From NCBI GenBank assembly GCA_902612825.1, contig CACMET010000002.1:3542-67541 (forward strand): 64,000 nt of DNA. The letters run 5' to 3'. The position numbers and the translations under genes were made by a program. The number at the start of each line of letters is the position of its first letter. Position 1 is the first letter of the stretch. Positions 9,819 to 56,120 of this stretch are shown one piece after another. The notes below the pieces were generated by a model, which had not been told where the DNA came from, ran no database searches, and saw nothing but the letters and a program-made list of their open reading frames with translations. Source of the DNA: an uncultured Alphaproteobacteria bacterium. GTDB lineage: Bacteria > Pseudomonadota > Alphaproteobacteria > HIMB59 > GCA-002718135.

Positions 9819-9937
9819 TTTTAGTTTAGCAAGAATTTATATTAGTAAAATTTGATAATAAGTAATTAAGGCTACTTTCTTATCAAAATATTCACTATCT
9901 TTATTTATCAAATCTTATAAAGCATTACATACTTTAA

Positions 9938-10417
9938 ATGAAAATTGGCAGATACAAATACGAGTTTGATTTCTTTAGTTGGATCAAAAAAACTGAGCTA
10001 GTAGAACTAGATGGTGTTAATCCATCTGATGATCCAGTGCGCCCAGAACTTGATAATGACTTTCGTACATCAAAAGGAAGAAAAATTTTTGGGCTCAAAT
10101 ATAAGGATGATATCGAGGGTATTGCGTGCTTCGCCTTTACAAATGAAATACCCGCAACAATTAAAGAAATGGATTTGATGAGTGTTGAAGAAGATCAAGC
10201 AACCATTCCAATCGCCTATACGTTATGGTCTTTTAAAAAAGGGGCAGGGAAAAAAATTATGAAAGAGCTACAAAAATATATCAAATCAAAAGAGCAGTTT
10301 GAAAGTATCATTACCATTTCGCCTTTAACTCCTGTTGCTACACACTATCACATTCGAAATGGCGCAAGATTAATTAAGATTAACCCTACAACACAGAACT
10401 TCGAATATAAAATTTAA
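9938..10417 (+). CDS. Hypothetical protein, possibly GNAT-fold
   Basis: 159 aa. SFKKGAGKKIMKEL resembles the acetyl-CoA-binding Q/RxxGxG/A motif. Otherwise unrecognised. Confidence 0.4.
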   Translation: MKIGRYKYEFDFFSWIKKTELVELDGVNPSDDPVRPELDNDFRTSKGRKIFGLKYKDDIEGIACFAFTNEIPATIKEMDLMSVEEDQATIPIAYTLWSFKKGAGKKIMKELQKYIKSKEQFESIITISPLTPVATHYHIRNGARLIKINPTTQNFEYKI

Positions 10418-39223: not shown

Positions 39224-40222
39224 TTAGATTAGACTCTTTATCTTTTCTATTAGCTCTGAATTAATTTGTCTTGGGCCTTTATCTTGCCTATTAGTATGTC
39301 TTCGTTGTCCAGGTAAACGTACACCGTCTAAAGATGTCATTTGTTCAAAAAATTTCTCAGCATGTTCATTCCAATTTTTTCCTGCAATAAGCTCTGGAGA
39401 TAAAGCCATAATAAATTCACCGCCTCTTGCAGGACCTCCATCATTATTGTCTTCCTCTTTAGCTTCAAAACTAAATAAATCTCCTACTAGACCTGCAGCT
39501 AATAACTCAATCATCATTGCTATTGCAGAACCTTTGTAGTCACCAAATGTTAAAAGGACTCCTCCATTTGCAATTTCAGATGGATTATCAGTTTTTTCTC
39601 CATGTTTATTTAAGCCTGTTCCAAATGGAACTTTATGACCATCACGTGCTGCAACCTGAACTTCTCCCATAGCCATTGTTGAAGTAGCCATATCGTAGAC
39701 TACAGGGGTATTATTTTTTCTTGGCCAAGCAAATGATATTGGATTTGTACCAAATAATGGTTTTTTTGCACCAGCAGGAGCTACACTTGGTTTATAAGCT
39801 GTACAAGCAATTCCAACTAAGTTGTTTTCAGCTAATGCTTCAGTTTCGTGCCATAAAGCTGCAAAATGATGAGTATTAGATATAGTCAAAACACCAACTC
39901 CATGTTTATTTGTCGTTTTTATCAATTCAGGCAAACCAACTTTTATTCCTACGGGAGCAAACCCATAATCACCTTCAACACGAATTGCATTTTGTGTAAG
40001 ATAAGTGTTTGTAGGTCTTGAAACACCATTAACTTTTTTACTTTTTAGAGAAGCTACATAACCGGGAATTCGGAATAAACCATGAGAAACACTTCCATCT
40101 CTTTCAGCATGTGAAACTGTTGTCGCAACAGAATCAGCATTGAAATGATCACATCCATTAGTAGATAATGCTTTATATGCTAGGTCATATATATTTTCTA
40201 ATTCTAATGGTGTGGTATTCAT
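39224..40222 (-). CDS. Ldh_2-family NAD(P)H oxidoreductase, DpkA/imino-acid-reductase-like
   Basis: 332 aa. Motifs HGLFRIPGY, NTHHFAALW, KPLFGTNPISFA, YDMATST, GDYKGSAIAMMIELL. Strongest by-memory resemblance is to Delta1-piperideine-2-carboxylate/pyrroline-2-carboxylate reductases. Confidence 0.7.
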   Translation of the reverse strand: MNTTPLELENIYDLAYKALSTNGCDHFNADSVATTVSHAERDGSVSHGLFRIPGYVASLKSKKVNGVSRPTNTYLTQNAIRVEGDYGFAPVGIKVGLPELIKTTNKHGVGVLTISNTHHFAALWHETEALAENNLVGIACTAYKPSVAPAGAKKPLFGTNPISFAWPRKNNTPVVYDMATSTMAMGEVQVAARDGHKVPFGTGLNKHGEKTDNPSEIANGGVLLTFGDYKGSAIAMMIELLAAGLVGDLFSFEAKEEDNNDGGPARGGEFIMALSPELIAGKNWNEHAEKFFEQMTSLDGVRLPGQRRHTNRQDKGPRQINSELIEKIKSLI

Positions 40223-40255
40223 TTACTTTTATTGAATAATTAATATTATTAATTC

Positions 40256-41626
40256 ATGGATAGAGGATTATTAGACAATTTAAAAGATATTTTACAAGAA
40301 AGAATATCATTTTCAGAAAGTGTAAGAAATAATCATGCGAAAGGTGAGGATGCTTACGATCCAGTTCTACCTAGGGCAGTTTTATTTCCAAACAATAATG
40401 AAGAACTCTCAAAAATACTGAAAATTTGTAATGAATTTAAAGTACCCGTAACTGCGTATGGAACAGGAACATCATTAGAAGGTCATGTTGTTGGAAATAA
40501 TGAAGGATTTACAATTTCAATGGAAAATTTTAATAAAATTATTTCTATTAATGAAGCAGACTTTGATTGTCGAGTACAAGCAAATGTATCTAGAGAACAA
40601 CTAAATGAAACTTTAAAAGATAAAGGAGTTTTTTTCCCAATTGACCCTGGCGCAAACGCATCTCTCGGAGGTATGGCAGCTTGTTCAGCTTCAGGGACGA
40701 TGGCTGTGAGATATGGAACTATGAGAACAACAGTGCTTGGTTTAACCGTTGTAATGGCAAATGGTGAAATTATAAATACAGGAACAAGATCCAAAAAAAC
40801 CTCTGCAGGATATAATCTTACTAACCTTTTTGTTGGATCAGAGGGAACTTTAGGAATAATAACTGAAGTGCATCTTCGATTGTCTCCAATACCAGAGAGC
40901 ATAATGAGTGCTGTTTGTCAGTTCCCTGATCTAGACTCTGCAGTGTTAACAGCACAAGAGATAATTCAATATGGTGTCCTTATTGCAAGAGTAGAATTAT
41001 TAAATAAAGATCAAATGGATATAAGTATACAATACTCAAAGCTAGAAAATTTAGACAGTTTGCCAACACTATTCTATGAATTTCATGGCACTGAGATTTC
41101 AAATAAAGAATCAATTGATGTAGTGAAAGAAATTTCCAAAAATAATAATGGTAGTGAATTTAAATGGGCCGCAAATACTGAAGAAAGAAACAAAATCTGG
41201 AAAGCAAGACATAATGTGTATTATTCTGTTAAGGCACAAGGTGATAATATTAGAGTTTATGTTACTGATGTTTGTGTACCCATTTCAAACATAGTGGAAT
41301 GTATTAAATTTGCAGAAACAGAACTTCGTGATACGGGATTAAAGGCACCTATGGTTGGTCATGTTGGTGATGGAAATTTTCATGTGTCTATTGTCTACGA
41401 TCCAAGTAAACAAAATGAGTACAAATATATCAGAGAATTTAGCAATAGATTAATTGATAAAGCTTTAGAGATGGATGGAACTATTACAGGTGAGCATGGT
41501 ATTGGTCTTCAAAAAAAAGAATATTTATTAAAACAACACCCTGATAATGTTCCTCTAATGAAATTAATTAAGAAAAGTTTTGATCCTAATAATATTTTAA
41601 ATCCTAACAAAGTTTTTGATTTATAA
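40256..41626 (+). CDS. FAD-linked oxidase (D-lactate / D-2-hydroxyacid dehydrogenase, GlcD-like)
   Basis: 456 aa. FAD_binding_4 pattern (GTGTSLEGH, GGMAA...SG) and C-terminal GTITGEHGIG motif. Confidence 0.8.
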   Translation: MDRGLLDNLKDILQERISFSESVRNNHAKGEDAYDPVLPRAVLFPNNNEELSKILKICNEFKVPVTAYGTGTSLEGHVVGNNEGFTISMENFNKIISINEADFDCRVQANVSREQLNETLKDKGVFFPIDPGANASLGGMAACSASGTMAVRYGTMRTTVLGLTVVMANGEIINTGTRSKKTSAGYNLTNLFVGSEGTLGIITEVHLRLSPIPESIMSAVCQFPDLDSAVLTAQEIIQYGVLIARVELLNKDQMDISIQYSKLENLDSLPTLFYEFHGTEISNKESIDVVKEISKNNNGSEFKWAANTEERNKIWKARHNVYYSVKAQGDNIRVYVTDVCVPISNIVECIKFAETELRDTGLKAPMVGHVGDGNFHVSIVYDPSKQNEYKYIREFSNRLIDKALEMDGTITGEHGIGLQKKEYLLKQHPDNVPLMKLIKKSFDPNNILNPNKVFDL

Positions 41627-41632
41627 ATAACT

Positions 41633-42688
41633 TTATATTTTTTGTAGTTTTTTTGTTTTTAAAGATTTGTACATTCCTTCTAATACTTTAATTGTCTTTA
41701 ATCCAATTTCACCATTTGAATGATTTTTTACATTTTTTCCAAGACAAATATCAATAAAAGTATTCAGTGCATCTTTAGTACCATAACTATAAGCACCATC
41801 TCCTTTACGTATTTTCTCTTCGATTATATCGCCATTATTTAAACGGACCAATAATCGTTCTCTGTTAATTTCCATGTCTAAATACAATACTCCTTTTGTA
41901 CCATGAACTGTTATATAGAAAGTTCCACCAAAATCTTTTGGAACAAACGCACTTCCTGAGAATGCACCAGTGGCACCATTTGAAAATTTCATTGATATAG
42001 CGTTTGTATAATCGACATCAGTTGGTGAAGGGACTGAGAGACAAAAAATTTCTTTAGGATCAAGATTAGTAATTTTAAATATACCTGCAAACATATGTGA
42101 CAGTTGTCCCCACCCATAACCTCCAGCTTTATTTGGGTCAGACCAAGTTGATGCATGTGGTTGAAAAGTATGCATATTTGATTCACTAAGTGGTATGCCC
42201 TGAAATAAATCTGTAAGAGATGAAGTAAAAGCTGCATCAACATGTTTGATTTCGCCAATTGTATTAGTTAATATAATTTCTTCTGCTTTTGACATAAAAT
42301 TTTTAAAGTTAAATCCATTGGGTATTAAAATTTGTTTATTAATTTTTTTAGCTAAACGTATTAATTGTTGAGCATCTTTTACATTTGTAGTCATAGGTTT
42401 TTCAATCATTACATGACAATTTTTTTCTAGTGATGCTTTTGCGTTTTCATAATGAGCATAATGAGGAGAGGAAATTATAACACCATCTAAATTTGAAAAA
42501 TTTAACATTTCTCTGAAATTTGTAGAAGCATACTCAAATCCAAATTTATCTTTAACAAATTTCAACTGATCTTTTTCAAGTTTACAAACGCTTGTTAATT
42601 CAACTTCAGTTCGTTCTTTTAAATGAGGTATGTGGTTTTCTGTAGCCCACCAACCTGCACCAATGACACCTATTTTAATTTTTTGCAT
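41633..42688 (-). CDS. Gfo/Idh/MocA-family NAD(P)-dependent sugar/inositol dehydrogenase
   Basis: 351 aa. IKIGVIGAGWWA Rossmann N-terminus and EKP motif (MIEKPM). Confidence 0.8.
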   Translation of the reverse strand: MQKIKIGVIGAGWWATENHIPHLKERTEVELTSVCKLEKDQLKFVKDKFGFEYASTNFREMLNFSNLDGVIISSPHYAHYENAKASLEKNCHVMIEKPMTTNVKDAQQLIRLAKKINKQILIPNGFNFKNFMSKAEEIILTNTIGEIKHVDAAFTSSLTDLFQGIPLSESNMHTFQPHASTWSDPNKAGGYGWGQLSHMFAGIFKITNLDPKEIFCLSVPSPTDVDYTNAISMKFSNGATGAFSGSAFVPKDFGGTFYITVHGTKGVLYLDMEINRERLLVRLNNGDIIEEKIRKGDGAYSYGTKDALNTFIDICLGKNVKNHSNGEIGLKTIKVLEGMYKSLKTKKLQKI

Positions 42689-42762
42689 TTTTTTACTCTA
42701 TTACAATAATTTACAAATGTCATTAAGCAGGATATTTATCTATTTATTAAATATTAAAGTAA

Positions 42763-43731
42763 ATGAAAAATAAAAGAAATATTGCAATTCTGATGGGTGA
42801 TCCATCTGGTATTGGTCCTGAGTTAATTTGTAAAATTCTAAATTATAATTTTTTAAAAAAAATAAATATAATAATTATTGGAGAAAAATATATATTTGAC
42901 AAATATTTGAAGAAACAAAAAAATATTAAATCAATTAATAATTTTGATCATATAGAATTTAAAAGTACTAATAAGATTTTCTTTGATATTACCAAAAGAA
43001 AAGTAAGATATCCAATTGGAAAAGCAAATATAAAATCAGGAATTTCTGTTTTAAAATCTATCGGTATAGCAGTTGATTTATATAATAAGAGAAAAATAGA
43101 TGGAATTAATTTTGCTCCATTTAATAAAACTAGTTTAGATCTTGCAGGTATGAAATTTAAAGATGAGCTTCATTATTTTAAAAATAAATTTAAAATAAAG
43201 AGCTATGTTTGTGAACTTAATGTGTTGAATAATTTTTGGACTGCTAGAGTAACATCTCACATTCCTCTTAAAGATGTTGCAAAAAATATAACTATTAAAA
43301 ATATTCTTGAACCAGTTAAATTAGTTAATAAGTATTTAAAAAAGAATGGAATTAAAAATCCAAAAGTAGGTGTTCAAGCTTTAAATCCTCACGCTGAGTT
43401 TGGAAATGAAGAGAAAAAAATAATAATCCCTGCAATAAGAAAAGCAAGAAAAATGAAAATTAAAACTTATGGACCATTACCATGTGATACATCATTTATT
43501 AGAGCCTATAAAAATAAAGAGTTTAATTGTCTTGTCGGCATGTATCATGATGCCATACAATCAGGTCTTAAATCTTTTGGGTTTGAAAAAGGAGTTACTG
43601 TTCAAGGAGGTCTGCCAATACCCATTACCACTCCTGCTCATGGAACAGCATTTGATATTGTGGGTAAAAATCAAGCTAACGTAAGTCCAATGTTAGAATC
43701 TTTAAAGTTATTAATTAAACTCTTATCTTAA
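42763..43731 (+). CDS. PdxA-family NAD-dependent (decarboxylating) dehydrogenase
   Basis: 322 aa. IAILMGDPSGIGPEL, ALNPHA and TPAHGTAFDIVGK motifs. Confidence 0.8.
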   Translation: MKNKRNIAILMGDPSGIGPELICKILNYNFLKKINIIIIGEKYIFDKYLKKQKNIKSINNFDHIEFKSTNKIFFDITKRKVRYPIGKANIKSGISVLKSIGIAVDLYNKRKIDGINFAPFNKTSLDLAGMKFKDELHYFKNKFKIKSYVCELNVLNNFWTARVTSHIPLKDVAKNITIKNILEPVKLVNKYLKKNGIKNPKVGVQALNPHAEFGNEEKKIIIPAIRKARKMKIKTYGPLPCDTSFIRAYKNKEFNCLVGMYHDAIQSGLKSFGFEKGVTVQGGLPIPITTPAHGTAFDIVGKNQANVSPMLESLKLLIKLLS

Positions 43732-43780
43732 AATTAAATAAATCTCTTGAATTAAATTAAATTAATATAATAATAGTCTT

Positions 43781-44965
43781 GTGAGTAAAATTGTAAGTGT
43801 AAAAGCTAAGGTCTATAAATGGACAGGGCCCGTTCAAAAAATTCACGAAAATTTTTGCACAAATGCTGCAGATATTGTTAATCAAGAAAATATTTCAGAT
43901 GATAGATGGACAACATATAAATTTCATAGTTGGTTAGTTGTTGAAGTAGAAACAAGTGATGGTTTTATAGGTTTAGGTAACGCCGCATTATCACCAGAAC
44001 CATGTAAATCAGTTGTAGATACTTATTTAGCACCAGCCATTATCGGTGAAAGTATATGGGATTATGAGCATATATGGCAAAAGATGTACCGACAAACACT
44101 AGCTTGGGGAAGAAAAGGTGTAGGTATGACAGCTATTAGTGCTGTTGATATTGCAATATGGGATGCGCTTGGAAAATCTGCGAAACAACCTGTATTCAAA
44201 TTATTAGGTGGAAAAACTAAATCAAAACTGCCTTGTTATGCAAGTAAGCTTTACAGTCAACCTCTTGATAGTCTTGCAAAAGAAGCTAAAGATTACGTAG
44301 ATCAAGGTTTTAAAGCAATGAAATTAAGACTTGGTTGGGGTCCCACTAATGGTGCTGAAGGTATGCATAAAAATATTGAATTAATCAAAACAGTAAGATC
44401 AATTGTTGGTGATAATGTTGATCTTATGGCTGATGTATATATGGGGTGGACATTTGAATATGCAAAAAGAATGATGAGATTAATTGATAATGAAAATCTT
44501 CGTTGGTTAGAAGAACCAGTTATCGCTGATGATATTGATGGTTATGCAGATCTAAAAGCTTCATGTAGAACTCCTATATCTGGTGGTGAACATGAATATA
44601 CACTTTTTGGTTTTAGACAATTACTAGAAAAAAAAGCAATTGATGTTGTGCAATTTGATACGAATAGAGTTGGTGGAATAACACAGGCGCATAAAATTTC
44701 TGCTTTAGCTGAAGCATTTCAAATACCCGTTATTCCTCACGCTGGACAAGTCCATAATTTTCATATTTCCATGAGTTCAGTCAACGCTCCTATTGTCGAA
44801 TATTTTCCATTCTGGCCAGTAGAAATTGGTAATGAATTATTTTGGTATATTTTTGATGGAGAGCCTCAAGCAAAAAATGGTTTTATTGAATTAGATGAAA
44901 ATAAGCACGGATTAGGAATAGAGTTATCCGAAAAATATTTAAAAAACTTTGAAATTCATCAATAA
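43781..44965 (+). CDS. Enolase-superfamily acid-sugar dehydratase (L-rhamnonate/fuconate dehydratase-like)
   Basis: 394 aa, GTG start. ISAVDIALWD..GK..PV.KLLGG, MADVYMGW, LRWLEEP and SGGEHE metal/catalytic pattern. Confidence 0.75.
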   Translation: MSKIVSVKAKVYKWTGPVQKIHENFCTNAADIVNQENISDDRWTTYKFHSWLVVEVETSDGFIGLGNAALSPEPCKSVVDTYLAPAIIGESIWDYEHIWQKMYRQTLAWGRKGVGMTAISAVDIAIWDALGKSAKQPVFKLLGGKTKSKLPCYASKLYSQPLDSLAKEAKDYVDQGFKAMKLRLGWGPTNGAEGMHKNIELIKTVRSIVGDNVDLMADVYMGWTFEYAKRMMRLIDNENLRWLEEPVIADDIDGYADLKASCRTPISGGEHEYTLFGFRQLLEKKAIDVVQFDTNRVGGITQAHKISALAEAFQIPVIPHAGQVHNFHISMSSVNAPIVEYFPFWPVEIGNELFWYIFDGEPQAKNGFIELDENKHGLGIELSEKYLKNFEIHQ

Positions 44966-44968
44966 TAT

Positions 44969-46702
44969 TTAGTGACTATGTCTTTTGACTTCAGCACCTC
45001 TTTTTCCAATTAGAAAATCTAAATCTGCTCCTTTGTCAGCTTGCATTACATGTTCTACATACATTTTTTGATAACCACCTGTGATTTCTGGAACAACAGG
45101 TGAATAATTTTCCAGACGATTTTTTATTGTTTCATCATCAACTTTTAAATTCATTGTTCCTTGATCAACATCAACTTCTATTTCGTCACCATTTTGAACT
45201 GCTGCTAAAGGGCCTTTAACCGCAGCTTCTGGAGCTGTATGAAGTATTACTGTACCATATGCTGTTCCACTCATTCTAGCATCAGATATGCGAATCATAT
45301 CTCTCACACCTTTCTTAAGTACTTTTTGTGGAAGTCGCATGTTGCCAACTTCAGCCATACCAGGATAACCTTTCGGCCCACAGTTTTTTAAAACTAATAT
45401 TGAATTTTCATCAACGTCTAAATTAGGATCATCAATCTTTTCATGAAACTCTTCTACGCTTTCAAAAACTACAGCTTTTCCAGTATGTTTCATTAATTCT
45501 GGTGATGCAGCTGATGGTTTAATAATTGCACCATTTGGAGCTATATTGCCTCTAAGAATTTTAATTCCTCCATTTTTGGTTAATGGATTTTCAAATTCTT
45601 TTATAACATCATTATTCCAACATTTAGCGTTTAAATTATTCTCAGCTATTGTTTTTCCATTAACAGTCATTGAATTTTCATCTAGTAATTTTTTTTCCAT
45701 TAATCTTTTTATAACTACTGGAACACCACCTGCATAATAAAAATCTTCCATTAAGTATTTTCCAGAAGGTTGAAGATTTACTAATGTTGGAATACCTTCT
45801 CCACATTTATTCCAATCTTCTAATTCTAAATCTATTTCCATTCGGCCTGCAATTGCAGCTAAATGGATAACTGCATTTGTAGATCCCCCTATTGCTCCAT
45901 TGACCTTGATTGCATTTTCAAATGATTTTTTTGTAACAATTTTTGACATAGTTATATCTTCCTTAACCATTTCAACAATTCTTTTCCCAGACATATGAGC
46001 TAAAGCATATCTTCTTGAGTCAACTGCAGGTATCGCAGCATTTCCAGGTAGCGACATCCCTAATGCTTCCACCATTGATCCCATTGTTGAGGCAGTCCCC
46101 ATAGTCATACAATTACCTTTTGATCTACTCATTGAAATTTCTGCATTAATAAAATCTTCTTCTGTAATTACACCAGCATTTAAATCTGCATCAAGTTTCC
46201 AAACACCAGTACCAGAACCTATTGTTTCACCTTGATGATGTCCGTTAAGCATTGGGCCACCTGAAACACCTATTGTAGGAAGATCGACACTTGCAGCTCC
46301 CATCATTAATGAAGGTGTTGTTTTATCACACCCCATTAATAATACGACTCCGTCTATGGGATTACCTCTTATTGCCTCTTCAACATCCATACTTGCTAAA
46401 TTTCTAAACAACATAGCTGTAGGTCTTAAATTGGATTCACTTGCTGAAAAAACAGGGAATTCGAGAGGAAAACCCCCAGCTTCATAAACACCTTTTTTAA
46501 CAGACTCTGCTATCTCTCTGAAATGACCATTACAAGGAGTTAATTCTGACCATGTATTACAAATACCAATTACAGGACGGCCATCAAATAAATGATTTGG
46601 ATGACCTTGATTTCTCATCCAGCCTCTATGAATAAATGTATCTCTTCGATGTGATTTAGAATTATACCAATTAGAAGATCTAAATTTATTTTTTTTATTC
46701 AT
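44969..46702 (-). CDS. IlvD/Edd-family sugar-acid (pentonate/hexonate) dehydratase
   Basis: 577 aa. N-terminus RSSNWYNS...FIHRGWMRNQG...GRPVIGICNTWSELTPCNGH, typical of arabinonate/xylonate dehydratases rather than housekeeping IlvD. GCDKTTP Fe-S motif. Confidence 0.8.
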   Translation of the reverse strand: MNKKNKFRSSNWYNSKSHRRDTFIHRGWMRNQGHPNHLFDGRPVIGICNTWSELTPCNGHFREIAESVKKGVYEAGGFPLEFPVFSASESNLRPTAMLFRNLASMDVEEAIRGNPIDGVVLLMGCDKTTPSLMMGAASVDLPTIGVSGGPMLNGHHQGETIGSGTGVWKLDADLNAGVITEEDFINAEISMSRSKGNCMTMGTASTMGSMVEALGMSLPGNAAIPAVDSRRYALAHMSGKRIVEMVKEDITMSKIVTKKSFENAIKVNGAIGGSTNAVIHLAAIAGRMEIDLELEDWNKCGEGIPTLVNLQPSGKYLMEDFYYAGGVPVVIKRLMEKKLLDENSMTVNGKTIAENNLNAKCWNNDVIKEFENPLTKNGGIKILRGNIAPNGAIIKPSAASPELMKHTGKAVVFESVEEFHEKIDDPNLDVDENSILVLKNCGPKGYPGMAEVGNMRLPQKVLKKGVRDMIRISDARMSGTAYGTVILHTAPEAAVKGPLAAVQNGDEIEVDVDQGTMNLKVDDETIKNRLENYSPVVPEITGGYQKMYVEHVMQADKGADLDFLIGKRGAEVKRHSH

Positions 46703-46734: not shown

Positions 46735-47610
46735 TCAAATTTTAAATTTATTATCTTCAAGGCCAGGCACATTAACATTTAATGCAAATAGACTGCCATC
46801 ATGTTGATTTTTACCTGAATTTGTAGCACTTGTAATAAATAAAGTTTTAAGATCACTTCCTCCAAATACACAATTTGTTATATTTTCAACAGGTAGCTCA
46901 TAGATTTTATCTATTCTTCCTTTAGGATCAATTCTCACTACACATGATCCACCCCAACGACAATTCCAAATAAAACCATCACTATCAATAGTTGATCCAT
47001 CTGGGGCACCTCTATCAAAATCGAAGAAGTTTTTTTTATCTGACAAACTACCTTCATCTAGGTTAAAATTGTATTCTAGTAATGATCCCTCAGTTGTATC
47101 AGCAAAATAAAATTTCGTGTTATCTGGGCTCCAAACAAATGTGTTAGGTATACCAAGATTTGTTTCAACAATATTTACCTTATTATCAAATAGACAATAT
47201 AAACTACCCGATTTAGCATTTAAAGATTTTGCACTTCCATCTTGATTAAAATTATTTTGCATAGTGCCAAACCAGAGCCTACCCCTAGCATCAGATGCAC
47301 CATCATTAGATCTATTTGTTAAAATATCATCTTCAACATTAATTATTCTTTCGTATTTTTTAGATTGAAAGTTAAATTTATTTACTCCATTATTTGAGAC
47401 TAAAGCAATTTCATTCTTTGAGATTATTGACGTCGCTGTTACAAAATCAGGTAAATCAAAAGTTTCTAATTTTTCGTTATCTAAATTAATTCTGAATAAA
47501 ACTGATTTTGGTTTAATATCTACCCAGTGTAAAGTTTGGTCAATTGAAGACCACGTGATACCTTCTCCCAAACTATTTTTTACATCTTTATATAATTCGA
47601 CCTTACTCAT
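46735..47610 (-). CDS. SMP-30/gluconolactonase/LRE-like sugar lactonase
   Basis: 291 aa. LGEGITW, NDGASDARGRLWFGTM and PDGSTIDSDGFIW six-blade pattern. Confidence 0.8.
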   Translation of the reverse strand: MSKVELYKDVKNSLGEGITWSSIDQTLHWVDIKPKSVLFRINLDNEKLETFDLPDFVTATSIISKNEIALVSNNGVNKFNFQSKKYERIINVEDDILTNRSNDGASDARGRLWFGTMQNNFNQDGSAKSLNAKSGSLYCLFDNKVNIVETNLGIPNTFVWSPDNTKFYFADTTEGSLLEYNFNLDEGSLSDKKNFFDFDRGAPDGSTIDSDGFIWNCRWGGSCVVRIDPKGRIDKIYELPVENITNCVFGGSDLKTLFITSATNSGKNQHDGSLFALNVNVPGLEDNKFKI

Positions 47611-47654: not shown

Positions 47655-48659
47655 TTAGAGGTAATGGGCTTTATCTTTAATGCGAGCCATTACTTCTTTT
47701 GTTGCTTCTTCAGAACCGTCATGGAATGTACCCATTAGTTTATCTAAGAAACTAGTATTTCCACCTGAATAATTGCATTCAAAATATTTATGGTGAATGT
47801 AATGCATATAATCACCTGTTGGAATTGATACACCATTTTTGAAAGTCATTTTCTCATATCCTGTATGTCCAGGTGTAGGTGCTAAACCGGCATGAAATAC
47901 ATGATACATCGCAACAAGAGGATGGGAAGGTATAATCCAATGAACTAAGATTCCTGAAAAATAGAGTATATGTTCTATTGGATGCATAGACATACCAGAC
48001 CAAGCACCTGTATTCGTATTACGGTGGTGAACTTTATGAGCAATTTTATAAAGTGGTGCCCAGTGCAATAGTCTATGAGTTAAATAAAAATGTGCGTCTC
48101 TTATAAACGGAACAAGAAAGAACATAAAACAACAATATATCGGATAAGCCTCCCAGCTTACATATGGGATTATTTGATTTGCAAATGCCCAAAATGTAAT
48201 TACTTCATAAGCTGTCCATAATGGAATAGCACTACAAAAAGTATAGAATAGGTTGTCTTTAGTCTGGTCTTTAAATAAAAATGTTGAGTTATTTTTTTCC
48301 AAAGGTCGTGGATTATATTTAAATGAAGTTCCTTGTGTCTGCAGTCTTAAATGAAAGAAGCCTGTCCAAAGTAAAATAATAACTGCATTTCTGAAAAATA
48401 TATAGGATATCCATCCTATTTCAAAAGTCTTCATTGTCTCTAAAGAAGGAGTCAAAAAAAGATATGTAGCAACAGTTATTGCTGCGAAAACAAAAGTCCA
48501 TGGAAAAAAAATTCCAGGAAATTTAAAAAAATACTTTAAAAATTTTATCGGGTTAAAAAATATATCTTTAGGTGGGTTAATACTTATTGTGCCAAAAGGT
48601 TTCCAATGGCCTCTTTTATCTCTTGTACCAAAATCATTATCATTTAGTTGATTTCCCAT
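47655..48659 (-). CDS. Fatty-acid-hydroxylase/sterol-desaturase-family membrane di-iron oxygenase
   Basis: 334 aa, multiple TM helices. His boxes HRLLH, HKVHH, HYIHH. Confidence 0.75.
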   Translation of the reverse strand: MGNQLNDNDFGTRDKRGHWKPFGTISINPPKDIFFNPIKFLKYFFKFPGIFFPWTFVFAAITVATYLFLTPSLETMKTFEIGWISYIFFRNAVIILLWTGFFHLRLQTQGTSFKYNPRPLEKNNSTFLFKDQTKDNLFYTFCSAIPLWTAYEVITFWAFANQIIPYVSWEAYPIYCCFMFFLVPFIRDAHFYLTHRLLHWAPLYKIAHKVHHRNTNTGAWSGMSMHPIEHILYFSGILVHWIIPSHPLVAMYHVFHAGLAPTPGHTGYEKMTFKNGVSIPTGDYMHYIHHKYFECNYSGGNTSFLDKLMGTFHDGSEEATKEVMARIKDKAHYL

Positions 48660-48697: not shown

Positions 48698-49714
48698 CTA
48701 AATTGTCGTATCTGGAACCTTCACATCAATAAAATAATTTTTATCTTTAGATTGCTTAAATATTGCTGGGATTATTGATCTATAAGCAGAAATTATTCCG
48801 TTATGAGGTTCTGGCATTTGATTTTTAACTATTTTGTGAAATTTTTTTAAATTATGGCATGGGATTTTTGGGAAAATGTGGTGCTCAATATGATACTCCA
48901 TGTTTGAATACAAAAAACTAAAAAAAGGATTCATAATAACGGTTCTTGTACTTTTTCTATGATCTTTAATATTATCAGCTAGTCCAGCATGTTGAGTCAT
49001 GCCGCATATCATTAATATAGTATTACCATAAAATGGAGGTAAAATTATCATTATGATTGGTAGCCATGATTGTAACAAAACTGAACATAAAATTACGAGC
49101 AACCAAAAGCTTAAATATAATCTTGAGCTATTAATAATTTTTTTTATCTCCTTTTCAGGTACTGTAACTTTTACAACAGGAGTAATTACCCCAAATGAAT
49201 GTTTAATAATTTCAAAATGTGTAAAATGTCTTATTTTTTGAATATTAATTATTGGACCAAGAGGTAAAAAATTTAAAAGGAATCTTACAGGTTCTGTTGG
49301 TTTTGGGCTATTATTTTCATAATCATACACCTCTTCATGTGTAAATATAGTGTAAGTATGGTGATGAAAATGACTCCACTTCCATCTAACTGCTTCAAAA
49401 CCACCAAGTAAAGAAGTTATATGATAAAAAAATTTATTTAACGCTCTTGTTTTAAAATATGTTTCGTGATTTGTTTCATGTTGAATGCTTATGATCTTAC
49501 AATAGAAAATATTTCCATAAAGCAAAAGAGCAGGTATTGACCATAAAGTACCCCAACTTATAATACAAAGGTATCCACTTAATATTAGAGCAACAATAAA
49601 TATGGATACATCTGTTAAACCTTTTATATCCGATCTCTTAGAAAGCTCCTTTAAAGTTTTCTTATCTATGTTTGGTTTATACCAAGTTTTTAAATCAACT
49701 TCACCCGCAAACAT
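48698..49714 (-). CDS. Membrane FADS-like di-iron oxygenase, MocD-like (paralog B)
   Basis: 338 aa. His boxes HETNH, HFHHH, HIEHH. ~40% identical by eye to 52170..53156. Confidence 0.75.
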   Translation of the reverse strand: MFAGEVDLKTWYKPNIDKKTLKELSKRSDIKGLTDVSIFIVALILSGYLCIISWGTLWSIPALLLYGNIFYCKIISIQHETNHETYFKTRALNKFFYHITSLLGGFEAVRWKWSHFHHHTYTIFTHEEVYDYENNSPKPTEPVRFLLNFLPLGPIINIQKIRHFTHFEIIKHSFGVITPVVKVTVPEKEIKKIINSSRLYLSFWLLVILCSVLLQSWLPIIMIILPPFYGNTILMICGMTQHAGLADNIKDHRKSTRTVIMNPFFSFLYSNMEYHIEHHIFPKIPCHNLKKFHKIVKNQMPEPHNGIISAYRSIIPAIFKQSKDKNYFIDVKVPDTTI

Positions 49715-49717
49715 TAA

Positions 49718-50545
49718 TCAAAATTTTTCTGAAAGCTTTAAAAATTTTTCAAATTCACCTTCATCAATCTTAACTGTGATTTTAGGATCATTAAATTTTT
49801 GGTTTACTGTATCATCGTGAAACTCTTTGAATGCGCTAACTCTTTCAGCTTGTAACTTTGCAAATTCTTTTTTAAAATCTCTATAAATACGTGCATGTCT
49901 TGGAATTTTTCCCTGAGTATACCCGAGTACATCGTTAGCAAATAAATATTGCCCATCACATCCAGAACCACTTCCCATTGAAAGAGTCATGATATCAACT
50001 TTTTTTGTAACTACTTCGGCAACTTTTGGTGGAACTACTTCGAGTTCAACTCCGATAGCCCCCGCTTCTTGTAACTCAAGAGTGTGTTCTAAAATTCTAA
50101 TGGCTTTGTCAGCAGTTTTGCCTTGTGCAACAAATCCTCCAATCCAAGTAGCATTTCCTGGAACTAAGCCAACATGACTGTTAATTGGAACATATTCATC
50201 TCTTAATGCTCTGATCCATTTGTAACTCCAATTACCACCGTAAATTACATCTGCACCAATATCTAAATACTTATGTGATAGTTTCATTGCTTCATACTCA
50301 GAAGCTACTCTTACAGCGCCTCCAGATTGCATAAAGCAAGTTGGTGCAGCCTCTCGAATTCGCTTAAGTTCATCAAAAGAATTATAAATACCAAATTGTG
50401 GAGCATCATGAGAAGTACAAATCATGTCAATACCTGCCTCTTCAGCTGCTGCAGCTTCGTCAGCATTATGTACAAACATAACACTAAGTTGTCTTTTACC
50501 TTTACATTGCAAATAATCGTAGACTGTAAGTTTTTTTCTGCTCAT
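49718..50545 (-). CDS. Divergent PanB-fold (ketopantoate hydroxymethyltransferase-like) protein
   Basis: 275 aa. The C-terminal two thirds align with E. coli PanB (HVGLVPG...GGF.AQGK..., ELEVVP, SMGSGSGCDGQ). The N-terminal PanB motifs (VGDSLGM, ADLPF, VKIEGG) are not recognisable. Confidence 0.7.
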   Translation of the reverse strand: MSRKKLTVYDYLQCKGKRQLSVMFVHNADEAAAAEEAGIDMICTSHDAPQFGIYNSFDELKRIREAAPTCFMQSGGAVRVASEYEAMKLSHKYLDIGADVIYGGNWSYKWIRALRDEYVPINSHVGLVPGNATWIGGFVAQGKTADKAIRILEHTLELQEAGAIGVELEVVPPKVAEVVTKKVDIMTLSMGSGSGCDGQYLFANDVLGYTQGKIPRHARIYRDFKKEFAKLQAERVSAFKEFHDDTVNQKFNDPKITVKIDEGEFEKFLKLSEKF

Positions 50546-50564: not shown

Positions 50565-50882
50565 TTAATCTATCTTAATGAAAATTTTGTCATTATCAAC
50601 TTTAACTGGGTATGTTTTTAAATCCTCACACGCTGGAGGGCTTAAGGCTTCTCCTGATTTAATGTTAAAAATTCCCTGGTGCATTGGACATTCAATTTCA
50701 TCATCCATAACCAAACCATCTTCAAGATGCACAGCCTCATGCGTACAAATTCCATCAGTAGCATAAAAACCATCTGTTAACCTATAAACACAAAAAGTTT
50801 TATCTTGATGGTCAAATCTGATAAGATCCTCTTCTTCAATACTGTCTATAGACCCTACTTCAATCCAATTTTCTTCAGACAT
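50565..50882 (-). CDS. Rieske-type [2Fe-2S] ferredoxin
   Basis: ~105 aa from ATG 50882 (the track's TTG 50921 is less likely). CTH-x16-CPMH Rieske ligands. Size and pattern match BphF/MocE-type soluble ferredoxins. Confidence 0.85.
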   Translation of the reverse strand: MSEENWIEVGSIDSIEEEDLIRFDHQDKTFCVYRLTDGFYATDGICTHEAVHLEDGLVMDDEIECPMHQGIFNIKSGEALSPPACEDLKTYPVKVDNDKIFIKID

Positions 50883-50934
50883 AGAGCTTATATAATATCT
50901 ATTTTCTGAAAATAAATACAAAATAATTAAATTA

Positions 50935-52164
50935 TTATTTTTGTATAAGTTTATTTAATTTTTGATTTTGGTCTAAGAGAATTTGTTTATCTATAATGGT
51001 ATTTTTCTCAGTTAATTTAGAAGTGATTCGAATGTCACGCCCAACTTTTCCTACAATTCCTACACCACATGCTCCTCTTATTTTTTTATTTTTTAGAAAA
51101 AAATAAATTACACCATTATTAATATCATTACCTCTTTCAATAATTTCATCATAATCATCACAAATACCAGTCAGTTGAAGATTCAAATTAAATTGATCAG
51201 ACCACATCCAGGGAATTGAATTGTATTCTGTTTTTACTCCAGCAATATTTTTTCCAGCACATATTCCATGATTTTGTGCATGTTGATAAGACTCTAGTCG
51301 CATATTTCTTTCATAAAATGGATGATAAAAATTACATACATCACCTGCTGCATAAACATCTTTGATAGAGGTTTCACAAAATTGATTTGTTACGATGCCA
51401 TTATCAAGTTTTAAATTTGTGTTTTCAAATAACTTTACTGACGGAGTTGATCCTATACCCGCAATTATAAAATCTGTTTGTATTAATGAATTATCACTAA
51501 GTAAGATTTCATAAATGCCATTTTTTTTGGTTATTTTATCTATCTGTTTATTTAATATTATTTTATTTCCATTTTCTAAATGAGTTTTTTGAACTAGATC
51601 AGCAATTTGTTTGGGTATAATTCTTCCCATAAGTTGATTACCGATTTCTATAACAGTTACTTTCTTTTGAAGCTGAGATAAAGATGAAGCAATTTCTAAG
51701 CCAATGAAACCGCCGCCAATAATAGTTATTTTATTTTTATCTGAAACTTTTTCCTTAATTATTTTGGCTTCTTCTAAATTTCTTAGATAATAAACATCAT
51801 CGTTTAAATTATTATTTAGGCTAAGTCTTTTATTATCGGAACCTGTAGAAATCAGTAAAGTATCATAAGTGTAAACATCTTCATTTTTTGAGAAAAGTTT
51901 TTTATGTTCAAAGTCAACTTTATTAATTAATATATTTTCAAAATCTATATTTTCATTTTTTAGTATGTCGCTAGAATGAAAATAAAGATCTTCTTCATTT
52001 TTTTTATCTAACAAAAAATCTTTAGATAATGGAGGCCTTTCGTATGGTAATAAATTTTCTTCACCTAATATTTTAATATTTGATTCTGTATCATTTTGTC
52101 TAATCTCTCTAGCAGCATAGATTCCAGCTTGACCACCGCCTAAAATTATAATGTTATTTTTCAC
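50935..52164 (-). CDS. FAD-dependent NAD(P)H:ferredoxin reductase (pyridine nucleotide-disulfide oxidoreductase family)
   Basis: 409 aa. ILGGGQAG FAD motif, IIGGGFIGLE NAD motif and AAGDV motif. BphG/MocF/CamA-like. Confidence 0.85.
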   Translation of the reverse strand: MKNNIIILGGGQAGIYAAREIRQNDTESNIKILGEENLLPYERPPLSKDFLLDKKNEEDLYFHSSDILKNENIDFENILINKVDFEHKKLFSKNEDVYTYDTLLISTGSDNKRLSLNNNLNDDVYYLRNLEEAKIIKEKVSDKNKITIIGGGFIGLEIASSLSQLQKKVTVIEIGNQLMGRIIPKQIADLVQKTHLENGNKIILNKQIDKITKKNGIYEILLSDNSLIQTDFIIAGIGSTPSVKLFENTNLKLDNGIVTNQFCETSIKDVYAAGDVCNFYHPFYERNMRLESYQHAQNHGICAGKNIAGVKTEYNSIPWMWSDQFNLNLQLTGICDDYDEIIERGNDINNGVIYFFLKNKKIRGACGVGIVGKVGRDIRITSKLTEKNTIIDKQILLDQNQKLNKLIQK

Positions 52165-52169
52165 TTAGC

Positions 52170-53156
52170 TTAAGCGTTACTTGGAACAGATAATGGAATT
52201 TGATAGTCTGGATTTTTTGCTTGTTTTATAAGTGCTGGAACAATTTCTTTATAGGCGCCTACAAGACCTTTTCTAGCAGGCGGTAATTGATCTTTAATCA
52301 TAGCATGTAGTTTAGGTAAATTATGCGAGGGAACTTGAGGGAACATATGGTGCTCAACATGATATTCCATATGCCAATATAAAAAACTTAATACTGGATT
52401 TAAATATACTGTTCTGGTTGTATACCTGTGATCTCTTTTATCTTCTCTAAGTCCGGCGTGCTGAGTAAGACCCATTAGCATAACAAGCGTCTTTCCATAA
52501 AAATTAGGTAATAAAACATATAGAACTGGAAGCCAGCTTTGAAAGTATACTGAAGAAGCAATACTTATGATCCAAATAGAGAGATGACTCCAAGCGGATA
52601 ATCTACATTTCCATCTTTCATTTTCCGGAATACAAACTTTCATTACATCTGTTGTCACACCAAACGCATGTTTTATAGTTTCCCATTGAAGAGAATTTTT
52701 AAAAAAAACAAAACCAGAGAATGGAATGTAGTGAGAGAAAAACACAATTAAATCAGTTGGTTTTTTTACATGTATTTCAAAATCCACAGGATCATTGAAT
52801 TGGGTATAAGTATGATGATGATAATGAGAATATCTCCATCTTATAGGCTCGAAATTATCCATGAAACTTGCAATGTAATAAAAGAAATCATTCCAGAATT
52901 TAGATTTAAAAGCTGTTCTGTGACCAGTTTCATGCCAAATAGCATCACTACATCCCCAAATATTTCCGTATATTAGAAAAAATAATAAAGACCACCAAGT
53001 GCCCCATGTGACATATGCAAGATACCCAAAAAGAAATAGAGATGAAAAATAAATAATCATATGCTTAAAACCCTGCCAATCAGATTTCTTGCATAACTTC
53101 TTAAATACTTTTTTATCTATATTTGCTCGATACCATTTACCTAAATCTACTTCCAT
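52170..53156 (-). CDS. Membrane FADS-like di-iron oxygenase, MocD-like (paralog A)
   Basis: 328 aa. His boxes HETGH, HYHHH, HVEHH. First gene of the operon. Confidence 0.75.
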   Translation of the reverse strand: MEVDLGKWYRANIDKKVFKKLCKKSDWQGFKHMIIYFSSLFLFGYLAYVTWGTWWSLLFFLIYGNIWGCSDAIWHETGHRTAFKSKFWNDFFYYIASFMDNFEPIRWRYSHYHHHTYTQFNDPVDFEIHVKKPTDLIVFFSHYIPFSGFVFFKNSLQWETIKHAFGVTTDVMKVCIPENERWKCRLSAWSHLSIWIISIASSVYFQSWLPVLYVLLPNFYGKTLVMLMGLTQHAGLREDKRDHRYTTRTVYLNPVLSFLYWHMEYHVEHHMFPQVPSHNLPKLHAMIKDQLPPARKGLVGAYKEIVPALIKQAKNPDYQIPLSVPSNA

Positions 53157-53319: not shown

Positions 53320-53346
53320 TTGAGTCATAAATTATTTGGAGGAATT

Positions 53347-54327
53347 ATGAAAAAAATCTTTGCAATCATTGCTCTATTTTTTGCTTTTGCATCTACTTCA
53401 GCAGTAGCAAAAAATGATTATAGCTGTGATAAGAAATTTATATTTTTCCCAGGCGGACCTGAAGGTGGTCCATTTGGAACTATTGTTTATAATGGTGCAG
53501 TAGCTGCTGCTGAACATACTGGTTGTGACGTAGACTATTACTGGTCACAATGGAATTCAGAAATCATGATTAAACAATTCAAAGAAGCTGTTGCTTTACA
53601 GCCTGATGGAATTGCAATCTATGGTTTCCCAGGTGATGCTGCAATGAGACCAATCATTCAAGAAGCTAGAGAAATGGGAATAGTTATTACTACTATGAAC
53701 ACACCTCTTCCTGACCTTGAGTCAGAATATAAAACTGAAGGATTTGGTTATGCAGGTGCAGATTTATTTGATGCTGGATTTAATCTAGGTAAAAAAGCTG
53801 TTGAAGTTTGTGGTCTACAAGCTGGAGATAAAGCTTTTATCTGGGGTCTTGCAAGTATGCCAAATAGAGGAGAAAGAACTAAAGGCGCAATAGCTGGTGT
53901 TGAAGCTGCAGGTGTTGAAGTTGTTTATCAAGAAATTCCTGATAACGTTAACTCAGATGCATCACAGGGAACTCCTATGTACGTAGCTACTTACAGTGCA
54001 AATCCTGATATCAAATTAGCAATTACTGATCATGGTGGGTTAACTGCAAGTTTACCAACATATATGAAAGCTGCAGGTCACGGTACTGAAGAAGTATGTG
54101 GTGCTGGATTTGATTTATCAGCTCCTATTGTTGATGGAATTAATTCTGGTTACATTGATGTTGTAATTGATCAACAACCATTTATCCAAGGGTATATGCC
54201 AATTGTTCAGTTATTCCTAAGTACAAAATATGGAATGGCTGGATTAGCTATGGATACTGGTGCTGCATTTGTTACAGCTGATAACGTAGATGCTGTTGCT
54301 CCATTGGCAGCAGTACAAATTAGATAA
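53347..54327 (+). CDS. Sugar/cyclitol-type periplasmic binding protein (RbsB/MocB-like) of ABC importer
   Basis: Track start is TTG 53320. ATG 53347 is preferred because it is preceded by GGAGG. Has a signal peptide (ALFFAFASTSAVA) and type-I PBP pattern. Confidence 0.85.
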   Translation: MKKIFAIIALFFAFASTSAVAKNDYSCDKKFIFFPGGPEGGPFGTIVYNGAVAAAEHTGCDVDYYWSQWNSEIMIKQFKEAVALQPDGIAIYGFPGDAAMRPIIQEAREMGIVITTMNTPLPDLESEYKTEGFGYAGADLFDAGFNLGKKAVEVCGLQAGDKAFIWGLASMPNRGERTKGAIAGVEAAGVEVVYQEIPDNVNSDASQGTPMYVATYSANPDIKLAITDHGGLTASLPTYMKAAGHGTEEVCGAGFDLSAPIVDGINSGYIDVVIDQQPFIQGYMPIVQLFLSTKYGMAGLAMDTGAAFVTADNVDAVAPLAAVQIR

Positions 54328-54339
54328 ATTAAATATTAT

Positions 54340-54374
54340 AACCTGCCTTACTTTATAAGGCAGGTTTATTTTTT
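54340..54374 (+). terminator. Intercistronic terminator/attenuator hairpin between the binding-protein and ATPase genes
   Basis: 11-bp stem AACCTGCCTTA / TAAGGCAGGTT, 5-nt loop, then TATTTTTT running directly into the ATPase ATG. Confidence 0.6.
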
Positions 54375-55142
54375 ATGGCTGAAGAACTTTTAAAATTACA
54401 AAATATTTATAAAAACTTTGGAAACGTAAAAGTTTTAAAAGATGTAAATATCAAAATAAATAAAGGCGAAGTAGTAGCTTTAATTGGTGATAATGGTGCT
54501 GGTAAATCAACACTTATAAAAGTTATAACTGGAGTTCATAGTCCAAACTCAGGAAAAGTATTTTTTAAAGAAGAAGAAGTACAAATTAAATCAGTTGCTC
54601 AATCAAGAAAAATGGGGATTGAAGCTGTATATCAAGAAAGAGCACTTTGTGATCAACAAGAATTGTTTAGAAATATTTTTGCAGGAAGAGAAATTACAAA
54701 CTCTTTTGGTTTTTTAGATATCAAAAAACAAAGAAAAGAAGCAGAAAAAATTTTACGGGATTATATAGGATTTACCTCTAAAGCTATAACTGTTGACTCT
54801 CCAGTAATGGGTCTATCGGGCGGAGAAAAACAAGGTGTTGCTTTTGGAAGATCCTTATACTTTAATTCTGATTTGATTGTGTTAGACGAACCTACTATGG
54901 GTTTATCAATTCAAGAAACAGAAAAAGTGCTTAACTTTGTAAAGGGTTTAAAAAATGAAAATAAATCAGCTATTTTTATCGATCATAATATAATACACGT
55001 TTACGGTGCTGCAGATAGATTTATCATTTTAGATAGAGGAGAAGTTGTAGGAGAGTTTAACAAAGAAGATATTTCAAGGGAAGAGCTTGTTCAAAAAATG
55101 ATCCAACTTCATGAATCAGGAAAAATTAAGGTAGAAGATTAA
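54375..55142 (+). CDS. ABC transporter ATP-binding protein (single ABC domain)
   Basis: 255 aa. Walker A GDNGAGKST, signature LSGGEKQG, Walker B LIVLDEPT. Confidence 0.85.
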   Translation: MAEELLKLQNIYKNFGNVKVLKDVNIKINKGEVVALIGDNGAGKSTLIKVITGVHSPNSGKVFFKEEEVQIKSVAQSRKMGIEAVYQERALCDQQELFRNIFAGREITNSFGFLDIKKQRKEAEKILRDYIGFTSKAITVDSPVMGLSGGEKQGVAFGRSLYFNSDLIVLDEPTMGLSIQETEKVLNFVKGLKNENKSAIFIDHNIIHVYGAADRFIILDRGEVVGEFNKEDISREELVQKMIQLHESGKIKVED

Positions 55143-56120
55143 ATGAGTAGTTTATTAAATAGTTATTTTGTAAAAACACACAAACTTGAAATCAGTATTA
55201 CAATAATTGCCATAGTGCTTTTCTTAATTTACTTCTTAGGTGCACCTCATGTATTTACAAGATTTCCAATTTACAGAGCTTTCATGCAATCAATGCCTTT
55301 TTTTGGTATTATTGCTATATCAGCAACGTTTGTCGTTACACTTGGTGAAATTGATTTATCATTTCCATCTATAGTTGGAATTACTTCTCTCATATTTGGA
55401 ATTATAATGACATCAACTGATGGTAATTTTTTTATAGCATTTATATTAGCCACTTCACTTGGAATGTTTGCTGGATTAGTAAATGGCTTACTTGTTACTA
55501 AAATTGGTATACCCTCAATTGTTGCCACTATAGGAACATTATTTTTTTGGCGTGGATTAGTTAATGTAATTTCCCAAGGTAGTGGTATTGCAATCGTCGA
55601 TGTGGCAGATGGAACCTGGCATCATATGATATTTGTTGAAAAATTATTTGGAAAAATTCCAATGCAATTTATTTGGTTCATTGTTTTAACTGGATTAATG
55701 CAATGGGTTTATCGATACCATAAATTTGGAAATCACATTCACTTTGTAGGTGACAATAAGGCCAGTGCTCAAATGATGGGAATTAATGTTGATAATGTAA
55801 AAATTATTGCTTTTGTTCAACTGGGATTTTTCTCTGCTTTAGCAGGAATTTTTACAATGTATGAAATGTTGTATTTCTGGCCTACACAAGGTGAGGGCTT
55901 AATGTTAACAACACTAGCAGCTGTTTTTGTTGGTGGTACTTCAGTCTTTGGTGGTAAAGGTACTATTTTTGGAACTTTTATAGGAGTATTAATTATTGGA
56001 TCATTAGAATCAGGAATAGTTGCTTTAGGCTTATCTGGCTTTTATGTAAAATTTATTAACGGACTCATGATAACAGTAGCCGTAACAGTCTACGCCCTGA
56101 TACAAAGAAGAAAAAATTAA
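55143..56120 (+). CDS. ABC transporter permease (RbsC/BPD_transp_2-like)
   Basis: 325 aa with ~9-10 hydrophobic helices. Start abuts the ATPase stop. Confidence 0.85.
   Translation: MSSLLNSYFVKTHKLEISITIIAIVLFLIYFLGAPHVFTRFPIYRAFMQSMPFFGIIAISATFVVTLGEIDLSFPSIVGITSLIFGIIMTSTDGNFFIAFILATSLGMFAGLVNGLLVTKIGIPSIVATIGTLFFWRGLVNVISQGSGIAIVDVADGTWHHMIFVEKLFGKIPMQFIWFIVLTGLMQWVYRYHKFGNHIHFVGDNKASAQMMGINVDNVKIIAFVQLGFFSALAGIFTMYEMLYFWPTQGEGLMLTTLAAVFVGGTSVFGGKGTIFGTFIGVLIIGSLESGIVALGLSGFYVKFINGLMITVAVTVYALIQRRKN

Follow-up and report, generated by a model that had tools for sequence, protein, structure and literature searches.

The locus analyzed here raises the question of what a gene named for pantothenate synthesis does among the genes of membrane oxygenases. 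The gene lies on the minus strand of the window, that is, the whole stretch of 64,000 nucleotides that was analyzed (G+C ~30%), and its product carries the public name '3-methyl-2-oxobutanoate hydroxymethyltransferase', the PanB enzyme. Close homologs are labelled Pelagibacteraceae, from which, together with the small genome, we assign the bacterium to SAR11. The reading frame has an ATG start with a GGAG 7 nt upstream; it begins 19 nt after a Rieske gene and stops 3 nt before the next oxygenase gene. Comparison with one congener ortholog gives 24 synonymous versus 2 non-synonymous codon differences, a sign of purifying selection, and the length is 275 residues in all but five of the 120 close homologs listed. 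The gene is the fourth in a run of eight packed minus-strand genes, in the order oxygenase 1, reductase, Rieske, PanB-like, oxygenase 2, FA_hydroxylase oxygenase, SMP-30 and IlvD/Edd:

53320..56120, plus strand: sugar-type ABC importer, divergent from the run (Peripla_BP_4 binding protein, ATPase and permease)
52170..53156, minus strand: membrane di-iron oxygenase 1, FA_desaturase family, MocD-like, with three His boxes
50935..52164, minus strand: FAD ferredoxin-NAD(P)+ reductase (Pyr_redox_2 and Reductase_C), in a MocF-like role
50565..50921, minus strand: Rieske [2Fe-2S] ferredoxin of the MocE family (TIGR02377, 136.7 bits; cut-off 136.15)
49718..50545, minus strand: PanB-fold paralog (P0001, 275 aa), with H124 and E169 kept and the PanB Mg/keto-acid residues absent
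48698..49714, minus strand: membrane di-iron oxygenase 2, again of the FA_desaturase family, with 3 nt between it and the PanB-like gene upstream
47655..48659, minus strand: membrane oxygenase 3, FA_hydroxylase family (Pfam)
46735..47610, minus strand: SMP-30/gluconolactonase-type lactonase (Pfam)
44969..46702, minus strand: IlvD/Edd-family sugar-acid dehydratase (840.5 bits on the L-arabinonate dehydratase model; cut-off 882)

The operon unites all parts of a MocDEF-like module, namely a MocE-family Rieske protein, a His-box membrane di-iron oxygenase and an FAD reductase, and the oxygenase His boxes HExxH, HxxHH and HxEHH are invariant. In rhizobia, mocDEF is required for the catabolism of rhizopine, 3-O-methyl-scyllo-inosamine, and Bahar et al. 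reportedly proposed in 1998, as a model, a demethylase role for MocD. The likeness to the rhizobial system extends to the binding protein of the window importer, which is of the sugar/cyclitol type and weakly similar to the rhizopine binding protein. The window operon differs in having three oxygenase paralogs together with a lactonase and a dehydratase, and we know of no PanB-like gene in the rhizobial moc cluster. More sugar and sugar-acid genes are found upstream. An adjacent sugar-acid island (39224-44965) encodes an Ldh_2 family protein, an FAD-linked oxidase, a GFO/IDH/MocA dehydrogenase, a PdxA-like dehydrogenase and an enolase-superfamily dehydratase, the last of which scores 240 bits on the L-rhamnonate dehydratase model, under its cut-off of 393. 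These genes may encode later steps of the same pathway.

The PanB-like protein matches the Pfam family PF02548 with 129.7 bits, above the gathering cut-off, through an alignment of residues 82-251 to positions 91-256 of the 259 in the profile. It scores below the cut-offs of both NCBIfam models, with 100.9 against 207.55 for TIGR00222 (panB) and 118 against 272 for NF001452 (PanB), and alignments to PDB PanB chains begin only at about residue 61-100 of the protein. In hmmscan at E values up to 0.01, PF02548 was the only family returned, with no match to PF03328 (HpcH/HpaI). An AlphaFold2 model computed from 36 family members reached a pLDDT of 92. The top Foldseek matches of this model are all PanB, with a TM score of about 0.7, and VIA places it closest to PanB structures (Z 23-26, 22-27% identity). 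The next-best families, methylisocitrate lyase, PEP mutase and phosphonopyruvate hydrolase, have Z values of 15-16.4, the barrel being shared with the ICL/PEP-mutase superfamily; HpcH/HpaI aldolases are absent from the structure matches listed by either program. As modeled, the protein adopts a PanB-type TIM-barrel fold and is homologous to PanB.

Ketopantoate hydroxymethyltransferases (KPHMTs) need a divalent metal, and residues D46 (equivalent to D45 here), D84, K112, E114, H136 and E181 are reported to be strictly conserved in all of them (PMC13488298). These positions were mapped by alignment to a canonical SAR11 PanB and to PDB PanB chains, in E. coli numbering. The canonical PanB proteins of a congener (L009) and of a SAR11 genome of the same order (L005) display the signatures VGDS, D(M/L)P(F/Y) and VK(L/I)E, where the PanB-like protein has CTSHD, QSGG and VIYGG. 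Relative to the E. coli enzyme, D45/S46 are replaced by S/H, D84 by Gly and K112 by Tyr, while E114 is deleted or replaced by Gly. Only H136 and E181 are retained, as H124 and E169, so that two of the six invariant PanB residues remain. The missing residues are those that PanB uses to bind Mg2+ and the 2-keto acid. With four of the six gone, the blocks shared with canonical PanB cannot serve keto-acid or metal binding, and the protein is almost certainly incapable of the PanB step. The structural kinship with PanB (EC 2.1.2.11; PDB 1M3U, 1OY0, 1O66/1O68, 3EZ4, 3VAV) comprises the predicted (beta/alpha)8 fold, the blocks after strands 5-8 and the conserved His (H136/H124) and Glu (E181/E169). 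By contrast, the PanB-like protein lacks D45, D84, K112 and E114 and adds the motifs GADxxY, VExExVP and PRHAK as well as a C-terminal helix, and its genes sit in catabolic oxygenase/sugar clusters and not with panC/panD/panE.

Most of the initial annotation, made from the window alone, agrees with these data. The motifs that it quoted (SHVGLVPG, GGFVAQGK, ELEVVP, SMGSGSGCDGQ, CTSHDAP, QSGGAV and VIYGGN) all occur in the translation, and the PF02548 alignment bears out its view that the resemblance to PanB is limited to the later part of the protein. It had also stated that the Asp, Asp, Lys and Glu ligands are not conserved while the region of the catalytic Glu is, as the alignment to canonical and PDB PanB sequences shows (E169 corresponding to E181), and that the gene lies amid oxygenase genes and not beside panC, which is indeed on another contig. 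The structure comparison that it called for placed PanB first among the matches listed. Its central proposal, a neofunctionalised PanB-fold paralog, is well supported by the fold, the loss of four of six residues, a clade of its own, the oxygenase context and the canonical panB of congeners. The finding that would have overturned it, a fully conserved PanB active site in the sole panB of the genome, did not materialize, since the site is altered and congeners have a canonical panB besides.

A real, divergent KPHMT serving pantothenate synthesis is, in turn, extremely improbable. Such an assignment would agree with the PF02548 score above the gathering cut-off and with the public annotation as PanB, and it gains some ground from the genome itself: the assembly (1.36 Mb, 79% complete) contains two PanB-like paralogs, the window gene and one on contig C7, together with panC on contig C1, and the search for a canonical panB that had also been suggested found none in it. 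It conflicts with the four lost residues, the scores under both NCBIfam cut-offs and the placement in a separate clade. Moreover, a canonical panB scoring ~250-275 bits is present in 16 of 24 congeners, most of which also carry one to four paralogs. In a congener, panB is flanked by genes that likewise lack orthologs in the present assembly; the absence of canonical panB is therefore best taken, tentatively, for an assembly gap.

Two side observations concern the same genome. The second paralog (L002:1330-2163, contig C7; 277 aa) is 33% identical to the window gene and is flanked by a PhyH dioxygenase gene, followed by an FA_desaturase-type gene fragment at the locus edge (L002:3-446), with a gene for a 446-aa extracellular solute-binding (sugar-binding) protein on the other side. 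MocD-like FA_desaturase-type oxygenase genes number at least six in the 1.36-Mb genome (contigs C2, C7 and C19, and L002:3-446), a large investment for a streamlined genome.

An exhaustive HMMER search retrieved 1371 cluster representatives at E <= 1e-10, some canonical PanB among them. Full-length representatives of the family are only 30-48% identical and yet display common active-site changes. The D45/S46 position is variable; D84 is mostly Gly, otherwise Ala, Ser or another residue; K112 is mostly Tyr, and E114 is lost through a deletion of two residues. All but one or two outlying representatives retain H136 and E181. Three residues that are absent from canonical PanB, D99, E167 and H217, are near-invariant in the family, and position 102 is Tyr in most members. 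GADxxY, VExExVP and PRHAK recur as family motifs, and the near-invariant F268 lies in a C-terminal helix of about 20 residues. In a quick maximum-likelihood run with IQ-TREE, the paralogs (51 rows) separate from canonical-like PanB (6 rows) with an SH-aLRT of 98, and oxygenase-linked members are dispersed over the whole paralog clade. The family is abundant in marine metagenomes, where two of its clusters at 90% identity count 848 and 1165 sequences. We found no paper describing it in the literature on SAR11 PanB paralogs, MocDEF, methylated-sugar and Rieske/desaturase O-demethylation. As judged from the alignments and the tree, the PanB-like proteins are an uncharacterised sister family of PanB and not a one-off.

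The neighborhoods of family members were compared in 20 alphaproteobacterial loci taken from a class-wide set of 401 Alphaproteobacteria. An FA_desaturase, FA_hydroxylase, PhyH or Rieske/reductase gene is found within about 3 kb of the paralog in 9 of the 20. In a Pfam tally of 96 neighbor genes from 18 alphaproteobacterial loci, FA_desaturase, PhyH and Rieske rank at the top, along with ABC-transporter parts and transposases. A homolog of the FA_hydroxylase-family oxygenase 3 lies about 1.4 kb from the PanB-like gene in locus L053, with one LacI gene between. Metagenome loci show the same linkage in varied arrangements (PhyH, PanB-like and FA_desaturase; FA_desaturase, Rieske and PanB-like; PanB-like and PhyH; FA_desaturase and PanB-like). 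Other metagenome representatives stand beside aldehyde dehydrogenase, sugar ABC, ThuA and GFO/IDH/MocA genes, and further ones have as neighbors GH4, a TRAP transporter, an aldo-keto reductase, or DHDPS with RraA and Amidohydro_2. At the genome level, the paralog occurs in 13 of the 18 Alphaproteobacteria with a close MocD-like oxygenase versus 10 of the other 383. The 13 come from nine families, but the counts are not phylogenetically independent, and relatedness inflates any p-value. The alphaproteobacterial loci that lack an oxygenase have no alternative functional theme; their neighbors include transposases, a DNA methylase, a histidine kinase and a threonine dehydratase.

This distribution bears on the proposal that the protein has no catalysis of its own and serves the membrane oxygenases as an accessory subunit, for instance a scaffold, chaperone or regulator. 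A subunit of this kind would fit the tight packing of the gene between the Rieske and oxygenase genes, and the canonical catalytic metal site is gone. Many family members, however, stand alone without oxygenases, and H124, E169, D197, D205, E167 and H217 are invariant or nearly so among representatives that are 30-48% identical, which suggests catalysis. We regard a non-catalytic role as decidedly improbable.

The IlvD-type dehydratase at the end of the window operon offers another assignment, in which the PanB-like protein would act as aldolase or lyase on the 2-keto-3-deoxy sugar acid that the dehydratase forms and split it; this is improbable for several reasons. The keto-deoxy-acid aldolase named in the initial annotation corresponds to this reading and found little support. 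Consistent with it, the operon combines a lactonase and a sugar-acid dehydratase with no recognisable DHDPS or HpcH aldolase, and C-C lyases are found in the PEP/pyruvate-binding barrel superfamily of which PanB is a member. The metal ligands of that superfamily and its keto-acid-polarising Lys are, however, missing family-wide, and neither an HpcH/HpaI nor a DHDPS Pfam signal is present in the protein. An IlvD-type dehydratase occurs near the paralog in only 3 of the 20 alphaproteobacterial loci, one of them the ortholog of the window operon; it recurs in L062 and L066, and most oxygenase-linked loci have no sugar-acid dehydratase within reach.

Further evidence on function comes from a basal member of the family, encoded in a JGI metagenome locus (L084:2130-6972, L085). 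The genes there encode, in this order, a mutarotase-like protein, a creatininase/IolN-like protein, an MtaA/CmuA-family methyltransferase, an MtgC/MtbC-like corrinoid protein, a 240-aa unknown protein, a 757-aa fusion, the PanB-like protein and a xylose isomerase. The 757-aa polypeptide joins an FA_desaturase, a MocE-type Rieske protein and an NqrF-like reductase in one chain. The locus of the basal member is a methyl/C1-transfer context in a sugar cluster.

Natural fusions bear on the substrate. In P0272 and P0273 (648 and 687 aa), the PanB-like domain is joined to a domain that has no Pfam match and whose model is galactose-mutarotase-like (pLDDT 91). The locus of the 648-aa fusion (L092:4141-6084) carries divergent LacI and ferredoxin reductase genes, then FA_desaturase, Rieske, the fusion and two GFO/IDH/MocA dehydrogenases. 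The fusion suggests that the PanB-like protein acts on the sugar intermediate itself and passes on a free reducing sugar. The extra domain was found in no other fetched locus and has no NCBIfam match, nor is it similar in sequence to the DUF4380 protein of L084. It also exists in a stand-alone form of about 345 aa, with 1815 hits that belong to no Pfam family and are mostly named 'hypothetical protein'. A third candidate, the putative ferredoxin-reductase::PanB-like fusion P0274 (654 aa, ENA metagenome), was rejected as its linker and tail are frame-shifted and Arg/Pro-rich; judging by this composition, a frameshift or an error in gene calling probably made one protein of two neighboring genes.

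What the protein does instead of the PanB step may follow from the part of the site that it has kept. Beside the metal and the keto acid, PanB's other ligand is 5,10-methylene-THF, which, on established PanB chemistry, is bound and activated by the rest of the site; no folate-bound PanB structure is among the PDB matches. The partners of the family belong to three unrelated oxygenase families, whose common chemistry could be the hydroxylation of a methyl group to yield a formaldehyde equivalent. Taken together with the loss of the metal/keto-acid half, these points make a THF-dependent C1 acceptor the best-supported model. We tentatively propose, with somewhat less than an even chance of being right, that, when a methylated sugar or cyclitol is O-demethylated oxidatively, the PanB-like protein is the putative folate-dependent enzyme that accepts the C1 unit set free. 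At slightly lower confidence, the family as a whole would be putative THF-dependent hydroxymethyl (formaldehyde-equivalent) transferases, a new kind of enzyme that connects the folate C1 pool with oxygenases of the membrane di-iron and Fe/2OG types. SAR11 and many other bacteria would then profit twice from O-methylated sugars and cyclitols, from the sugar and from the methyl carbon, without free formaldehyde. The retro-hydroxymethyltransferase suggested in the initial annotation comes close to this putative transfer of a C1 unit to folate, although ketopantoate would not be the substrate.

According to this C1-acceptor model, the protein would be a cytosolic TIM-barrel enzyme derived from ketopantoate hydroxymethyltransferase, with H124, E169 and the blocks after strands 5-8 as the surviving half of an active site whose other half, for Mg2+ and the 2-keto acid, is gone. 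It would act as an accessory enzyme to the MocDEF-like oxygenase module, in which electrons would flow from NAD(P)H through the FAD reductase and the Rieske ferredoxin to the membrane di-iron oxygenases. The oxygenases would hydroxylate the O-methyl group of an imported methylated sugar or cyclitol, and the product would be an O-hydroxymethyl hemiacetal, a formaldehyde equivalent. The PanB-like protein would then move the C1 unit from the hemiacetal to tetrahydrofolate, so that 5,10-methylene-THF forms and the sugar is freed. Oxidation of the C1 unit for energy would follow via FolD, Fhs and formate dehydrogenase, and the freed sugar would proceed through mutarotation, a dehydrogenase, the SMP-30 lactonase and the IlvD-type dehydratase. 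In this scheme we infer the methyl groups as the target of the oxygenases, folate as the co-substrate and the direction of C1 transfer. Both Fhs and FolD are encoded in the genome. SAR11 bacteria oxidise methyl groups via THF and cope poorly with free formaldehyde, for which the authors blame an absent activating enzyme (PMC3160333).

Several observations speak against the C1-acceptor reading. About half of the family loci in larger genomes have no nearby oxygenase, and the genome of the window has at least six MocD-like oxygenase genes versus only two PanB-like genes. The rhizobial moc cluster is not known to have a PanB-like gene, and demethylation by MocD is itself a model. The need for an enzyme is arguable, since formaldehyde hemiacetals decay, and formaldehyde condenses with THF, spontaneously. 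In addition, D99, E167, H217 and Y102 could constitute a new site that binds a metal or a substrate and supports some other chemistry. The last point leads to an enzyme that would do without folate and convert the oxygenated sugar or cyclitol, perhaps as an isomerase, epimerase, tautomerase, eliminase or hemiacetal lyase, with a putative rebuilt site of Y102, E167, E169, H124 and H217. This possibility is the main rival, although on the unlikely side. In its favor, the family has conserved polar residues of its own, missing from canonical PanB (D99, E167 and H217 close to invariant, Tyr 102 in most members), some members are fused to the mutarotase-like, sugar-binding domain, and others neighbor genes of keto-sugar chemistry, namely GH4, ThuA, GFO/IDH/MocA, aldo-keto reductase or xylose isomerase genes. 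It leaves unexplained why exactly those PanB blocks that are not used for keto-acid binding are retained, and why the family tracks FA_desaturase, FA_hydroxylase and PhyH genes and, in one locus, a corrinoid methyltransferase pair.

The folate-dependent C1 acceptor has functional counterparts in other proteins. Fae (with H4MPT) and Gfa (with glutathione) do a conceptually similar job, a faster condensation of formaldehyde with its carrier, although their folds and carriers differ from those of the PanB-like protein; to our knowledge, no THF-specific counterpart exists. The proposed capture of the C1 unit on THF instead of release as free formaldehyde would also resemble the GcvT-like folate modules of dimethylglycine/sarcosine oxidases, DmdA and LigM. 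That analogy is one of function only, as the GcvT fold is unrelated to the PanB TIM barrel predicted here. SAR11 makes wide use of such folate-binding C1-acceptor demethylase enzymes (PMC3160333).

Since the family is annotated as PanB and is abundant in marine metagenomes, automatic reconstructions can credit SAR11 genomes with the PanB step wrongly, and predictions of vitamin B5 auxotrophy would be distorted by such an error. If the folate coupling is true, the family would stand for a new enzyme activity, and the ocean's most abundant heterotroph would have a new route for using methylated sugars. The MocD-type oxygenases with soluble substrates, which are poorly understood, would also gain a partner that can be tested.

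Multiple copies of PanB-like sequences were also observed. The metagenomic protein P0123 (542 aa, ENA) contains two PanB-like stretches in tandem, and one congener has two adjacent PanB-like genes beside two PhyH genes (L063:6995-8685 and 8782-10322). The alphaproteobacterial genome G194 carries five PanB-like copies (L054, L057, L059, L060 and L061), and transposase genes flank at least L054, which suggests recent duplication or mobility.
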